64,000 nucleotides of DNA. Origin: Sarea resinae (lineage: Eukaryota). Shown here one piece after another: positions 2,140 to 63,307 of this stretch (the stretch's first letter is position 1; each line of letters begins with the position of its first letter). Under the pieces are notes generated by a model. The model saw only the letters and a list, made by a program, of their open reading frames with translations. It was not told the origin of the DNA and did no database searches. The stretch lies in NCBI GenBank assembly GCA_026026165.1, contig JAPEUD010000018.1, positions 62,001-126,000 of the forward strand, written 5' to 3'. Both the position numbers and the translations under genes were made by a program.

Positions 2140-3355
2140 CTGAGTTTGAGACTGAGTCCGAGTTTGAGTACGAAACCTGTACAACGAGCTGACTTCGCAT
2201 CCGTTGGCCACATGAGTATGAGTATGAGTATGAATAGCACGGCTTGGGCGGGGTAGGGGCGGGGTAGGGGGGGGTTTTGTTTCGGTTCAGCCGTGATTCT
2301 TGGTTCCGAGCACACAGACACACAGACACAGACACATAGATTTCTCAATCCAATCAAAGATTATATCGGGTAATCTACGCCATCTTCCCGTGATACTTTA
2401 CCCTCTGTTCTTCTACTCTGCTACTCTCCTGCTCCTCTGCTCCTCTGCTCCCCTGCTCTCCTGCTCTCCTGCTCTCTAGCCTTTTTCTCTTGCGAGCGAG
2501 TGGGAAACAGGAAACACGAAAAAGCGAAGAGCAAAGGCCAAAAAAAAAAAAAAAAGGACATATGACAGCCTTGAAAACACAAACACAAACTCATGGAAAC
2601 CCAATGGAAAACCGAATCCCGAAAATTCAGATTCGAATCGGGATTCATGGATTGATGGATGGATGGATGGATGGATGGATATAGTTAGGTAGGTGGTTGG
2701 ACACGTTAATCGGACTCGGACTCGAAGGAGGAGGACGTGGATTCGGATTCGCGTCCTTTTTTCGTCCTTGGTCTTTTACTTTGTCTGCCTGTTTGGTTTG
2801 GTCGTAAGCCTGTTTGGTCGTATGGCTGGGTGGCTGGCTGGTTGGCTGGCTGGGTGTCGTATGTAGCTGGTTTGTTGGTTTGTTGGTTTGTTGGTTTTTG
2901 GTTTTTGGTTTTTGGTTGTGGGTTTTGGGATTCAGATGTGGGATTTGGATCTGGTTCTGGTTTTGGTTTCAGTGGCTCTTGGCTCGTGTAGCACTGTCTA
3001 GCACTGTCTAGTCCTGTACAGCCCTGTCCAGCCTGAACCAGCCCGGCAAGAGGGGGACGAGGGTGAAGAGGGTGAAGAGGGGGGGGGGGGGGGGGGAGGA
3101 AGACGAGGCTAGAAGCCAAGTCTCCCAAAGCATAGGAAAGAAAGAAAGAAAGAAAAAGACAAGAGAAAGAAGAGAAAAAAAGAGAGCACTGAAGTAAGCC
3201 AAGATGCACACTCGTATTGAATTCTCCTATCTAGGCGGAATCGATTTGGTTCTGATGGATTATGTAGGTGCCTGACTGACTCCGTACTCCCTACCCCTCC
3301 TTCCCCCCTATCCATTCTTCCTTTCTTCCTTTCTTCCTTTCTTTTGTTCTTTTGT
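2140..3355. repeat. Microsatellite/low-complexity cluster between convergent ARO8 and UTP23
   Basis: (ATGAGT)n, (ACACAG)n, CTCCTG-type repeats, poly-A, (ATGG)n, (TGGC/TGGT)n, G18 run at 3079-3096, (GAAA)n. Confidence 0.9.
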
Positions 3356-56869: not shown

Positions 56870-57430
56870 TTTTATTTATCCATCCATCCATCCATACATC
56901 CATACATCTATCCATCTATCCATCTATCTACCGAGCCAGACTATCTGTCCCGCTTCACCACGCGCTACGGGGCTGGTCTACAGAGTATGTTCTACCTACC
57001 TACCTCTCTGCTTATGATTATGAATAGAGATACTATATGCTGTGTGTGGTGTGTGCTATACAGCACGCTATACCCCTATCTAGTCTCATGATTGTGTGCT
57101 TGCTTTTACACCGTGTAATCGTGGCTGTGAATTGTGAATTGTGATTGTGAAAGGGCTCGTGGCTTTATGATCTGACTGTTTGAGAATTTCTGTTTGATTT
57201 GTGCATCTGTCTTGTTTCGTTGGTGTAGAATAGGATTGATTGATTGGTTGATTGGTTGGTTGGTTAGTTGGTCGGTCTTTTCTAATCAAACAATAACTCA
57301 ACCAAACCAGGATCAGGATCAGGATCAGGATCAGGATCAGGATCAGAACCAGCGAGATGAAAAACACGTAGTAGACAGAAAGTACATCTCCACCCCCACC
57401 AAAAACCCCAACCGCAACTAATCCTAATCC
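56870..57430. repeat. Microsatellite cluster 3' of ValRS
   Basis: (ATCC/ATCT)n, (TGTGAAT)n, (TTGA/TTGG)n, (CAGGAT)6 at 57308-57346. Confidence 0.88.
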
Positions 57431-60400
57431 TAATCCTCCAACTTCAGGCGCTCAAAGCCCTCGACATTGCCCTCGAGACTCCTAATCTCGGCCTCCAAGC
57501 CGCGGAGCTTCTCCTCCTCGACGCGCTGCAGCTCGAGCGCCACCTTGGCGCGATAGGCGGGATCGTGCAGGATCTTGCGCTGGCGGGCCGCGGCCTCGTC
57601 GGCGCGCGCCATGCGCGCCTTCGCCTTGGTGATCTCGGCGTCGATGTCGACGCGCCCGAGGATGCGCGCGTAGATGGTTGTCGTGGCGGATGTGGCGAGC
57701 GCGATGGTGCCGCGCGGCTTGCTCGTGCTGGTGGTGTCTGGGAGGAGGTGGAGCTCGCCGAGCGATTTGCCGGAGAGCGACTTGATGGCTTGCAGCTCGG
57801 CGCTCAGCGTGGAGTGGGATTGTGGAGAGGTCGTGTGGATGGTGACTTGTGAGGTTGGTGTTAGCTATGTTTTTCTAGAGCGCTTGGGGAAGGGTGGTGA
57901 TTTAGGTGGCGATCCAGGTGGTGGGCAAGGGATAGAAATGGGCGAAACAGGCGGTGTAGGGAGGCCGGTGGATAGATAAATAGAAGACATACCTTCGCCG
58001 TTCTCCTTAATCGAGTACTCGGCCAACAGCGACCGAATGCCCTTCGATACATCCAGGAGAAGCTCATACGCTTCCTCAGACTTCGGGTCGTCGAGCTCCG
58101 CGTCGTAGACGGGGTATTTGGCCTTGACAATCGAACGGGTGGAGTCGTTGGGACGGCGTGGCAGACGTTGCCAGAGCTCTTCGGTGAGGAAGGGCATGTG
58201 GGGGTGGATCATGGTCAGGCCGCCTTCGAGAGCCGTATAGAGGGTGTCCTTGGCCGATCTCTGCTCTTCAGGGCTGCCGTCTTGGATGATGGCCTTGGAG
58301 TTTTCCTGTTTGCGGGTGTTAGAGATTGTTGATAGATGCGGAGCGAATTAGAAACTCACAATGTACACATCGCAGAGGTGGTTATACCAGTATTGATACG
58401 CAATCAAAGTGGACTGGGAAAACTCGCGGTCTGTCAAAGCTTGGTTGATCTCCTTGGTGGCCGTGGTGAACTTGTGCAAAATCCATCGTTCGGCCAATGA
58501 CTCTTTGCCCGTCTTTTTGCCGCTCTCACGCGGCACGAAGTCGTCGCCGAGTTTGCCCAGAACGAATTTGGTGGCCTGGTAGATCTTGTTGCAGAATCTT
58601 CGGTATCCGAACATGACCTTGACGTCAAAGTTGATATCACCGCCTGTGAGAATATTAGTGACTGAAGTGAGAACGATCATGGTCAGGAAGCCTTACCACC
58701 GGTAGTGTACGAAATGAGAGAGAATCTCAACGCATCGGCACCGCATTCAGGAATACCATCGGGGAACGAGTTCTTTTGGAATTTTGTGGCTGTTGCCAAC
58801 TCCTTGGGGTCAAGATTGCCAAGAAGAAGCTTGTCGTGTAGTGACTGCAGCGGAATACCTTGCATGACGTCCAGAGGGTCGATCACGTTGCCAAGAGATT
58901 TCGACATCTTTCGTCCTTCGGAATCTCTGACCAAAGAGTGGCAATACACCTCTCTGAACGGTACCTGGCCGGTCATCTTGATACCGAGCATGATCATTCG
59001 CGAGACCCAGAAGAACAGAATGTCCCATCCAGTCTCTAGCACAGAAGTAGGATATAGAGTCTCCATGTCATGCGTCTTTTTGGGCCAGCCGAGGGTGGAG
59101 AAAGGCCAAAGCCCGGAGGAAAACCATGTATCTAGCACGTCGGGATCTCTCTTGAGGGTGAATTTCTTATCAGGAAACTTGGCTTTAGCTTTTTCTTCCG
59201 CTTCCTCTTCAGTTCGACCCGCAATCCACAAACTCGCGTCATTCTCACTGTTATTCTCCCCTTCAAGCTGGATAAAATAAGCTGGGCATTGATGACCCCA
59301 CCATAATTGTCTGGAAAGACACCAATCGTTGATGTTCTCCATCCATTTGATATAGCTCCTCTCGGCTGTATCTGGGCGGATCTTGATCTCGCCATTCTTG
59401 ACAACCTTAATGGCCTCATCTGCGAGTTCTCGCATGCGCATCCACCACTGCGGCTTCATGATAGGCTCGATGACGTCCTTGGATCTGGAGCAGAGTGGCA
59501 CCTTCATAGGATTGTCCTCCTTCTTGACGTACAGGCCAAGAGTCTTGAGATCCTCGACCACAGTAAAACGAGCATCAAAGCGCTTAACCCCTTCGTACTT
59601 ACCGGCATTGGAGTTCAGCGTGCCATTATCGTTCAAGATATTAATGAACTGCAGGCTGTGCCGGTTGCCGAGAGCAAAATCGTTAGGGTCATGAGCGGGC
59701 GTGATCTTGACCGCACCAGTACCGAACTCGGGATCCACGTAGTCATCGGCAACGATTGGCATCAGGCGGTCAACAAAAGGATGTCTCGCAAATTTCCCAA
59801 CGAGGTGCTTGTAGCGGTCGTCCTTTGGATGCACGGCAATACCGCTATCACCAAGCATAGTCTCTGGTCGAGTAGTAGCCACTTCGATCTTTTCTTCCGA
59901 ACCATCAATCTGATACTGGAAATGGGTGATGACGCCAAATTCCACCTTCCGTTCATAGCCAGGAACATCAAGCAGAGTGCGTCCTTCGAGCTCCTTGTTG
60001 TCGACCTCAAGGTTCGAAATAGCAGTATTGAGCTGAACGCACCAGTTAACAAGTCGGTCCGCTCTGTAGATGATGCCCTCCTCGTGAAGTTTCACGAACG
60101 TCTCTGTGACAGCAGCCGAGAGATTGGCGTCCATAGTGAAAGCCTCTCTCGTCCAATCAAAAGAACCACCCATTCTTCGAAGGACATTGTTGATCTTCGA
60201 ATGATACTCTCCCTTCCAGTCCCAAACAGTCTCCACAAATTTCTCTCTTCCAAGATCATATCTGGTCTTCTTTTGCCTCCGCCACAGCATGTTCTCCACC
60301 ACGCTCTGAGTAGCGATACCGGCATGATCGCAACCTGGTAGCCATAGAGTAGTCTTCCCCTGCATTCGATTCCATCTGATCAGGCAATCCTGAAGCGCAT

Positions 60401-61174
60401 TGGGAAGCGCATGGCCCATGTGAAGAGCTCCAGTTACGTTTGGTGGAGGCTCCGGGATGGAGAAATAACCTTCCGGCTTGACTTTTCCATCTGGACCAAA
60501 CTCGGGTTCAAAGAAACCCTCCTTCTCCCACCAAGCATACCACCCAGATTCGACCACGCCAGGAATGTACGCCTTGTGGTAGGCATCATCAAGCGGCTTT
60601 AGGACTGTTCGACCACGTCAGCTTCCCAGAACCGCCACAATCATTCGCAGAGCGGAATCACTCTTCTTCTCGCCCACAGGCGTCTCCTCCACGTATTCCG
60701 GCAACTTGTCCTCCTTAGCAGACTCCTGCTTAGATTTCTTTTCCTTCGTCTTCGAGCCCGCAGCTCCGGCGGCAGGTGCACCGAGGTTCTTGGCCTGCTT
60801 TTCGGCAAATTTCTTCGCTTTCTCGGCTTTTTTCCGTTCTTTCTCCACTAAAATCCTAAAGCATCAGAATTTAGGCCTCTGGCTGCTGTGGCATCGATGG
60901 GTTTGTTTGCATACGTTCTTTCTCCGTCTTGACTTTCTTGCCTAGCTGCTTGTCCCCTCCATCCTGACCTGAAGCATTCTGGCCAGTCGGCTCTCCACTC
61001 TGGGCACCGGAAATGGCTGCTTTCGTCTCTTCAGAGACGGCTGGTGGGTGTCCACTAGTTGGGCCCGTTTTTTCCCCGACTGTAGGCGCAGCTCGCATTA
61101 GATTGATCGCCAGCAAGACGGCGGGAGTCTAGAGGCTACTCACTGGGGTTGCTTGACGCTGAATTTGTCGCCAT
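57430..61174 (-). CDS. VAS1: Valyl-tRNA synthetase, multi-exon
   Basis: [15 protein letters not shown] (HIGH), [55 protein letters not shown] (KMSKS), [15 protein letters not shown]. First exon [10 protein letters not shown] at 61174. Confidence 0.97.
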
Positions 61175-61442
61175 TCTGACTCTACGAACTGGCGCGATAA
61201 GCCTTCTGGAGACCGGAGCGCGCAGTAAGAGCGCGCTGCGAAGGATTTTGAGATGCCCCCTCTGCTGAGGGAGAGCAAATGATCCCGGGGCGGATCGATT
61301 GGAATGCGCACTGTGGATGACCGATGAACTGGAAAACAGTCCAATTGCAAGATGAGGCTATTGATCGGAGAAGCTCTGCGCAATTGAAGGTGTTGATTCA
61401 TGAAATTCTTCGATGACCCGCATGGCAATCCTATCTCTCGCT

Positions 61443-61471: not shown

Positions 61472-61921
61472 GTCACCACAGGGCCGATCAAGGAAACGCT
61501 CGGCTCATCTAAGATGCAGGGAATCATCGGAGACATCTGATCGCGGGGTCAAAGGGGAATCATGAAAAAGAACACAGATGATATTATTAATGCGTGCAAA
61601 GTTTATATACAAAATTGACTGAATCCATCTAATGCTGAGGAGAAAAGCGCCTACAGCAAACGCCCGCTTCGTCCACTACAACGCCCAGCTCCGCCCACCT
61701 AACCATCTGTTATGGACTTCCTCCTTCGAATCATGCATAGTGTTGTAGCAACCTTAGTGACGTAGATGTAGATGTAACGATCGAGTAGGTAAGGCACCCT
61801 CATGGCATCGTTGCAATCTGGGTGGATAGGATGCGCAAATCGTCACATCGTGAAAAGGTTCGCTGGTGCTCGTTGAGAGTAGAAGGAAGGTATTCATATA
61901 TGGAATTTCGTGAGTGTGATA

Positions 61922-63307
61922 TCAAGTAAGGGCGGGGGTATGATTTTGCAGCGCCGCAGCACTTCGCACAGGGCTGAAATAAGGGTGTGCCATCGCCTCT
62001 TTGGCCGTCAATCGTTCCTAGCCATTGTTAGATAATCACAGCCAGTATATCACGGGGGAAAATGGCACATACCTGATGATCGTATCTCAAAAGCTTGTCG
62101 AGGAAGTCAATGGCATCATTGCTGACTAGTCTTTGGTTCTCCGCGTTCACAAACGAATGCCATGGTTTCTTGGGGAATCTCCCCAGGATATCATCGTACT
62201 GTGCATCGAGCTCGATCTCATACTTGTCCAGATAGTCGAAAAGATCTTCCGTTCCGAGAACCTTGGCAATCTTCACCAGCTGGTCTGAATTGCTATTACC
62301 GTGGAAAAAGGGCTCCTTTCGGAAGATCATTGATGCGAACATGGCCCCTAAAGACCACATGTCTAGAGAGTAGTCGTACTCTTGAAAGTCTACGAGAAGC
62401 TCGGGACCTTTGAAGTATCTCGATGCTACTCGGACATTATACTCGGTGCCTTGGTGGTAGAACTCTGCCAAGCCCCAATCGATCAATCGCAACTACATCC
62501 TAGTGAGCCAAGAATCGAGGAGTGATGAAGAGATCGAGATAGTTACCTTGCGCTTCTCGTGGTCTATCATGACGTTGTGTGGCTTGACATCTCGATGCAT
62601 AATCCCTTTACTGTGGCAGAAATCAAGGGCCTTGTATAGTTGTTAGTCATCTGAGCGGTGCATCGAATAGCCATATACGCACCTTGAGCAATTCGTAGAT
62701 GTAGAATCGCACGTCGAAGTCAACAAACTTCGGGTACAGACTTCGAAAGTCCGTGTTGTTGACAAATTCGAAAATCAAGGATGGGGTCTTGCTCTGCGGC
62801 GAAGCCAAACAGTCAGTAAGCGTCTTCTATGGTGGATCATGCCAGGAGCTTTCCGTCCACATGCCGCTCCCTGATCATAGACCCAGTTGCGCCCACAACG
62901 TACCGTACTGTCCCTCACGACATCCAGCAGCGCGACGATGTTGGGGCCTCCCGACAGGTTTTGCAGGATCTTGATCTCTCGCTTTATCTTCTTCTTCTTC
63001 ACGGGCTTGAGGACCTTGATGACGCATTTCTGATAGTGAACGACGTTGATGCCCTCGAAGACCTCGGAGTATTTGCCTCGACCTAGACGGTGCAGGTCCG
63101 GTCAGCGCAAAGCGGGGTGGTGAGTGGTCGAGGCACACGATATCAGATAGAAGGTGCCCCGCAGTTAGTGAGATGGGAAGGCCTCGGCGTACCAATCTTT
63201 CGGACGACCTCATAATTCTCCAGCACGCCCCACGAGATATTGACGCTGTCGTAGTCCCAGTAAGACCTCGGCATCTGCTGGTTGACATCGGCGTAGACGC
63301 GCGCCAT
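61922..63307 (-). CDS. CKA1: Casein kinase II catalytic (alpha) subunit, multi-exon
   Basis: [88 protein letters not shown], and last exon [14 protein letters not shown]...HTPALT*. Confidence 0.97.

Follow-up and report, generated by a model that had tools for sequence, protein, structure and literature searches.

A candidate non-AUG-initiated mitochondrial presequence in the conserved leader of the valyl-tRNA synthetase gene of Sarea resinae and related fungi

Introduction

Fungal genes that supply one aminoacyl-tRNA synthetase (aaRS) to two compartments offer the closest described systems for the leader examined here. In Saccharomyces cerevisiae, the mitochondrial alanyl-tRNA synthetase (AlaRS) is made from ALA1 by initiation at a pair of consecutive ACG codons in frame (Tang et al., 2004, cited in PMC7600831), while GRS1, which encodes glycyl-tRNA synthetase (GlyRS), uses a UUG start located 69 nt upstream that yields a presequence of 23 residues (PMC7600831). 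In Cryptococcus, the arginyl- and leucyl-tRNA synthetases (ArgRS and LeuRS) are single-copy aaRSs typed as 'DualNCC', with AUU and ACG/AUU, respectively, in good context (Wallace et al., 2020; PMC7049704), and the same source describes fungal dual-localised aaRSs as having repeatedly exchanged weak AUGs and near-cognate codons. The subject of the present report is a stretch of 64,000 nt from the fungus Sarea resinae (GenBank assembly GCA_026026165.1, contig JAPEUD010000018.1, positions 62,001 to 126,000), hereafter called the window, in which the gene for valyl-tRNA synthetase (ValRS) is preceded by an in-frame leader that lacks ATG. Coordinates are those of the window, and all of its features described below lie on the minus strand.

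For ValRS itself, Table S5 of PMC7049704 assigns the type 'DualAUG' to the enzymes of Neurospora crassa (NCU01965), Candida albicans, S. cerevisiae and two Cryptococcus species, each of which has a presequence ahead of a second Met. The table gives N. crassa a single ValRS row and lists the enzyme of Schizosaccharomyces pombe as cytosol-only, a separate mitochondrial paralogue of that species being given in section 21 of the same source. ValRS is AUG-started or cytosol-only in every fungus typed there, and the rows of this table indicate that a layout of presequence, Met and enzyme is the norm for fungal ValRS. The S. cerevisiae gene, VAS1, also makes two transcripts (PMC7600831). Near-cognate starts of conserved frame have been described outside the aaRSs as well, in the 5' extensions of N. 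crassa cpc-1 and its counterparts across Pezizomycotina (Ivanov et al., 2017; PMC5487733).

Comparison of the window with 26 related loci makes it probable that a non-AUG-initiated presequence for a mitochondrial isoform exists at the ValRS gene of S. resinae. The evidence comes from the DNA of these leaders, and consists chiefly of the conservation of a basic peptide block in the ValRS frame, of a near-cognate codon heading that block, and of the absence of ATG from there to the annotated start.

An AUG-less leader in the ValRS frame

The annotated cytosolic start of ValRS is the ATG at 61172-61174, whose context is strong (GTCAGAATGG, A being at -3 with G at +4) and at which P0001, a database protein of 1100 residues with the source name Sarea resinae MAG protein, also begins. 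Upstream of this codon the ValRS frame stays open for 61 codons (61175-61357), back to an in-frame TAG at 61358-61360, and contains neither ATG nor any codon for aspartate or glutamate (D/E). An initial annotation had pointed to these properties, and the window DNA bears them out. The leader peptide reads PHLAIG...RRVR before the Met and is rich in Ser, Leu, Arg and Ala (10, 9, 9 and 7 of the 61 codons), and the 224 nt from 61398 to 61175 hold no ATG in any frame. Among 5000 composition shuffles of the window, absence of D/E, given an open frame, was found in a fraction of 0.053, and 224 nt without ATG in any frame in 0.063. Taken alone, the leader of the window is weakly unusual and not compelling; since each of the shuffle figures is weak by itself, the window proves nothing on its own, and the significance of the leader is drawn from its relatives.

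Conservation of the leader among related fungi

Metagenome contigs were scanned with the first 146 residues encoded by the largest ValRS exon (58686-60617, 100% identical to P0001), which returned 80 loci. Of these, 36 combined a Met motif no more than 1600 nt upstream with enough upstream DNA, and 44 were without one or the other. After removal of six identical copies, of L066, L007 and L044 (near-identical to L065, L004 and L024, respectively), and of L039, which has an in-frame stop, 26 metagenome loci remained, and these make up, with the window, an aligned set of 27 distinct leaders. By best match to named proteins, the 26 loci resemble Lecanoromycetes, Leotiomycetes and Dothideomycetes.

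Each of the 26 relatives has, before the AUG, at least 26 codons of ValRS frame with neither ATG nor stop, and in 27 of 27 leaders this frame encodes a block of the form (I/L/F)-L-x-(R/K)-A-L-x-(V/L)-R..P..R. In the window, this block and its tail occupy 61175-61243 and read L-R-S-A-L-L-L-R-A-P-V-S-R-R-L-I-A-P-V-R-R-V-R. The R/K-A-L core contains an invariant Ala codon, located at 61232-61234 in the window, whose distance to the AUG is 15, 19, 20, 21, 22, 23 or 25 codons in the different leaders. The MAFFT alignment was built on DNA, not on translations, and every gap in it measures 3, 6 or 9 nt.

Stops, ATG triplets and acidic residues were counted in the region from 8 codons before the Ala codon through to the AUG. 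A stop was present in frame 0 at one of the 27 loci (L002, at the upstream edge of the region), in frame +1 at nine, and in frame +2 at 16. With 28.9 ATG triplets expected over all frames, not one was observed; the nearest ATG upstream lies 130-503 nt away. Acidic residues number one in 760 in this region, versus 35 in 540 in the next 20 codons upstream in the relatives. In 18 close pairs, the synonymous share of changed codons was 38% in frame 0, compared with 10% and 16% in the other frames, and two Arg columns interchange AGA and CGA. By these measures the leader appears to evolve as coding sequence; the alignment of orthologous leaders that the initial annotation had suggested, as a check on frame conservation and synonymous bias, thus found the frame kept and the synonymous excess in frame 0.

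Ten of the 44 loci left out of the alignment were read by eye, and three loci (L030, L046 and L057) were placed in neither class. Four loci outside the alignment have AUG-less basic leaders, with ACG in L009, ACG ACG TTG in L040, and ATC and CTG directly after a stop in L059 and L069. AUG-started presequences are found in the yeast-like L034 and L035 and in the Neurospora-like L072. In the window and 30 related distinct leaders, there is no AUG at the head of the presequence.

Candidate start codons

A near-cognate codon other than AAG or AGG, with a purine at -3, is present within the five codons heading the block in all 27 leaders. This head codon is ACG in 19 of them, 5-7 codons before the Ala codon; ACG accounts for 16 of the 20 Thr codons in one alignment column, and eight leaders carry a tandem ACG ACG. 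The eight leaders without ACG (the window, L001-L004, L019, L021 and L033) have ATT, ATC or ATA instead, with A at -3 and always at a distance of exactly 4 codons from the Ala codon that follows. The window has the ATC of 61244-61246 at this place, with A at -3 in the context CAAAATCC and 24 codons upstream of the AUG. Judged from this conserved placement, the ATC is the best candidate for the start of the mitochondrial isoform, and the chances that it is the main start appear about evenly balanced.

The initial annotation had placed the start further upstream, at the ATT of 61343-61345 or the CTG of 61337-61339. Both codons are present there and in frame, with G at -3 (the ATT also has G at +4), and a third near-cognate, an ATC at 61318, is likewise in frame with a purine at -3. 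Translation mainly from these 5'-end codons would give an extension of 48-57 residues, and a scanning subunit would reach them first if the transcript includes them. The entire 61-codon stretch of the window, moreover, is without D/E, whereas the relatives show the acidic residues noted above just upstream of the block. Yet the ATT and CTG are not conserved: they precede the block by 31-33 codons, and no equivalent codons occur in the relatives. The peptide alignment reveals no conservation ahead of the block, and in many of the relatives an in-frame stop precedes the conserved ACG or ATH (ATA, ATC or ATT) by just 2-12 codons. The lack of D/E in the 37 extra codons of the window would arise by chance with a probability of roughly 0.08 at the relatives' rate. 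It is the ATC at 61246-61244 that occupies the conserved site, and initiation mainly at the 5' end is an unlikely alternative to be kept in mind; the upstream ATT and CTG may contribute longer isoforms if they are part of the transcript.

Presequence-like features of the leader peptide

Read from the ATC, the window peptide has a net charge of +7, no D/E, 71% Arg, Ser, Leu and Ala, a hydrophobic moment of 0.80, and one phi-x-x-phi-phi motif, the consensus for binding to TOM20. Between head codon and AUG, the 27 peptides carry net charges of +4 to +8, all 27 are free of D/E, and 26 contain the motif. Their median hydrophobic moment is 0.58, versus 0.43 and 0.33 in the other two frames and 0.43 in frame 0 further upstream.

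An annotated counterpart of the block is found among database orthologues. Of 61 orthologues of at least 980 residues whose N-termini were printed, 53 begin at the conserved cytosolic Met motif, and P0062 is the sole one with sequence upstream of it: an annotated, AUG-started, basic extension of 34 residues that stands directly before the conserved Met and contains the conserved block. Every mitochondrion needs a ValRS, and the proteomes as annotated lack a mitochondrial one, because 53 of the 61 models start at the cytosolic Met and only P0062 has a presequence.

Arg immediately precedes the Met in 16 of the 27 leaders. This would fit an R-2 processing site, leaving a mature N-terminus identical to that of the cytosolic form; it may equally stem from the A at -3 of the AUG context.

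Proposed mechanism

The mechanism put forward here starts from the observed frame, composition, ATG-free zone, coding-type substitutions, and conserved block with its near-cognate head. The 5' leader of the ValRS gene, a single locus, would be coding, and a minority of scanning 40S subunits would initiate at an in-frame near-cognate codon, most likely the AUC at 61246-61244 (context CAAAAUCC), which the initiator tRNA would read as Met. Initiation at this AUC would place a presequence of about 24 residues, encoded I-L-R-S-A-L-L-L-R-A-P-V-S-R-R-L-I-A-P-V-R-R-V-R, ahead of the enzyme, and this basic, acid-free peptide would send the isoform into mitochondria. Most subunits would pass the AUC and, because no AUG in any frame intervenes, would go on to start at the strong AUG at 61174, yielding the cytosolic enzyme. 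With no ATG between the two starts and a strong context at the main AUG, the arrangement appears to permit leaky scanning. The initial annotation had likewise proposed a non-AUG mitochondrial presequence, reached by leaky scanning and missed by annotation; that proposal gains strong support from the 26 other loci and from the AUG-started orthologues, whereas the codons it had named do not.

A wider scenario can be outlined, which we regard as speculative and somewhat doubtful. In much of Pezizomycotina, represented by Leotiomycetes-, Lecanoromycetes- and Dothideomycetes-like loci together with Sarea, mitochondrial ValRS may long have been made from a conserved non-AUG start, and lineages may have exchanged ACG ACG, AUU/AUC/AUA and AUG for one another at almost the same codon position. 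In the lineages with AUU, AUC or AUA (AUH), a downstream GC hairpin and fixation of GCG..CGC could form a second layer under selection, setting the ratio of mitochondrial to cytosolic enzyme; a downstream hairpin is reportedly the subject of work by Kozak in 1990.

The hairpin in question lies within the presequence coding region of the window (61214-61240), where AGCGCGC at 61237-61231 pairs with GCGCGCT at 61223-61217 across a 7-nt loop. It comprises 7 bp plus 2, with a folding energy of -15.7 kcal/mol and a z of -3.45. A stable hairpin is present in the window, L002 and L004 (z -3.3 to -3.9) and a weaker one in L001 (z -1.7); one of its pairs is altered on both sides, from C-G in the window to G-C in L004. 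No such hairpin was found in the ACG-type leaders.

Evidence against translation of the leader

A number of points weigh against a translated presequence begun at the conserved near-cognate codon. The open frame of the window was kept in 0.147 of the 5000 shuffles, and frame +1 is free of stops at 18 of the 27 loci. Counts out of 27 leaders overstate independence because the loci, and the pairs drawn from them, are phylogenetically related and represent roughly eight lineages. Two loci fit poorly: in L039 (about 2980-3060) the block follows right after TAG TAA CTG, and an in-frame TAG occurs 8 codons before the AUG, while L030 (about 3110-3258) has an out-of-frame ATG 50 nt ahead of its presumed AUG. 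These misfits could reflect lineage-specific loss, an intron or an assembly error. With regard to the start codon, the window has other in-frame near-cognates further upstream (ATT, CTG and ATC), and in N. crassa AUC is said, from work by Wei et al. in 2013, to be a weaker near-cognate than CUG or ACG. The proposal also presumes transcription of the leader, initiation within it, a role of its peptide in import, and a mitochondrion served by no other ValRS gene; the putative assignment as a mitochondrial import signal draws on simple features of the peptide. The one RNA run available for this region (X1, described below) covers no part of ValRS or its leader and is evidence neither way.

A further point against concerns constraint on the nucleotides themselves. 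The third positions of the Ala codon GCG (25 of 27 leaders) and of an Arg codon CGC (22 of 27) are conserved beyond coding need, unlike those of neighbouring codons. These codons correspond to alignment columns 28 and 32 and, in the window, to 61232-61234 and 61220-61222, and in several leaders they make up, along with the bases around them, AGAGCGCTCT-type palindromes. Some DNA- or RNA-level constraint thus acts in addition to coding, and it could explain part of the conservation.

Carried to its end, this line of argument would make the leader an untranslated 5' region (UTR) that harbours a nucleotide-level element, such as a GCGC-rich palindromic site for a binding protein, an RNA hairpin, or the promoter element of a short transcript; mitochondrial ValRS would then be supplied by a different gene or by the AUG-started protein, weakly imported. 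The near-invariant third positions, the palindromes and the stable hairpins of the window, L002 and L004 all agree with this view. What it fails to explain is the frame kept over gaps in multiples of three, the absence of D/E and stops confined to one frame, the synonymous excess in frame 0 with its Arg AGA/CGA swaps, and the AUG-started homologous presequences of other fungi. RNAalifold, moreover, gave 0 conserved pairs for the 27 leaders, and the 96-nt leader fold of the window was no better than that of shuffles (z 0.07). An untranslated leader is accordingly held to be improbable, and a coding leader bearing an additional constraint fits the comparative data better.

Upstream region and sources of an AUG

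A DualAUG arrangement of the VAS1/cyt-20 type was considered for the window and rejected: the leader contains no in-frame ATG, and the sole in-frame ATG upstream, at 61423, is cut off by the TAG. (NCU01965 is cyt-20, reportedly described by Kubelik in 1991.) This ATG opens an in-frame upstream open reading frame (uORF) of 21 codons (61358-61423), which encodes an acidic peptide and has the leader-bounding TAG as its stop. A second uORF, of 90 codons (61131-61401), begins out of frame at the ATG of 61401, in a weak context with T at -3, and overlaps the main AUG. The presence of these two upstream ATGs, the second heading a long out-of-frame uORF across the main AUG, suggests a main transcription start downstream of 61401. 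Five further upstream ATGs occur at 61508-61628.

The extension might nevertheless be AUG-made, either through an upstream exon with an AUG that is spliced onto the leader or through readthrough of the TAG at 61360 by ribosomes that started at 61423. Readthrough would draw on the in-frame uORF that ends exactly at the bounding TAG, with C after that stop, and splicing on the 47 frame-preserving GT..AG combinations in the window. None of these 47, however, has a GTRAGT-type donor, and the two that pass a looser GTRNG filter read GTGCGC. As to readthrough, the uORF peptide is acidic, unconserved and not signal-like, and the in-frame stops of the relatives differ from that of the window and are often double (TAG TAA, TAG TGA, TGA TAA). 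For L012 and L028 such an exon is excluded, since these leaders have no AG, and hence no possible acceptor, from the in-frame stop to the ACG. In the window, the transcript of the neighbouring gene reaches to at least 61573, which leaves little room for another exon. We consider an AUG-made extension highly improbable, the least probable of the alternatives discussed, and a start at a near-cognate codon remains the preferred explanation.

The upstream neighbour (61573-62492) encodes a protein kinase domain (Pfam PF00069, E 1.7e-19). Its stretch 61573-62261 is covered by a contig, about 98% alike, from run X1 (share 0.09), a wood-decay metatranscriptome; the contig indicates a 55-nt GT..AG intron at 62017-62071. 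Within the contig-covered stretch of the kinase gene, the sequence TATATAAA occurs at about 61608-61601.

Structure of the ValRS gene and its gene models

The ValRS coding span extends over several exons from 61174 to 57430, with the stop at 57430-57432. Comparison of window DNA with P0001 places exon 1 at 61144-61174, ending with the first base of an Ile codon, and intron 1 at 61080-61143 (64 nt, GTGAGT...CAG). The cytosolic N-terminus M-A-(T/L)-N-(A/S)-(A/G)-S is conserved among orthologues; between classes, the first ten residues, M-A-(T/L)-N-(A/S)-(A/G)-S-x-N-P, are near-invariant while third positions vary freely. In four database orthologues (P0017, P0020, P0036 and P0042), short unusual insertions coincide with the sites of intron 1 or intron 3 in the window gene and look like introns retained in gene models.

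Significance and comparison with known systems

No report of a non-AUG ValRS start in filamentous ascomycetes was found in the literature searched, most subscription journals lying outside that search. If confirmed, the ValRS leaders would offer, at a single deeply conserved site, a natural series of variants with ACG, AUH or AUG, which would be useful for studies of start-codon stringency and for the correction of gene models and localisation predictions.

The DualAUG ValRS genes (VAS1, NCU01965 and those of C. albicans and Cryptococcus) are orthologous to the gene of the window and share its layout, as far as Table S5 of PMC7049704 describes them, the difference being that theirs have an upstream AUG and the window has none. 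The similarity extends to the peptide: the Cryptococcus ValRS presequence, as given in that source, begins M-L-R-H-A-L-R, and the window has I-L-R-S-A-L-L at the equivalent place.

As in ALA1, as summarized in PMC7600831, one gene and one transcript would suffice, a near-cognate codon upstream of the cytosolic AUG adding the import signal, and the tandem ACG ACG that heads the block in 8 of the 27 ValRS leaders resembles that of ALA1. Unlike ALA1, the present case concerns another synthetase in another lineage, the codon of the window is ATC rather than ACG, and the window is known from sequence alone. The resemblance to GRS1, as portrayed in the same source, lies in the length of the candidate presequence (about 24 residues), in its place immediately before the cytosolic AUG, and in the non-AUG start proposed for it; GRS1, in contrast, encodes GlyRS and uses UUG, whereas the gene here is that of ValRS and the candidate start is AUC in the window and ACG in most of its relatives.

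The DualNCC class offers a similar comparison. In the tabulated data of PMC7049704, ValRS is never DualNCC in the six or seven fungi covered, while the loci described here would place it in that class across at least three classes of Pezizomycotina, as assigned by best match. N. crassa cpc-1 shares with these leaders a near-cognate-started 5' extension whose frame is conserved across Pezizomycotina; it differs from the window in encoding a transcription factor rather than an import signal, and the main text of PMC5487733 makes no mention of mitochondria. The mechanism proposed for the window is thus not a new one, being that of ALA1, GRS1 and the Cryptococcus ArgRS and LeuRS genes, to which the ValRS of S. 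resinae and its relatives would be an added case.
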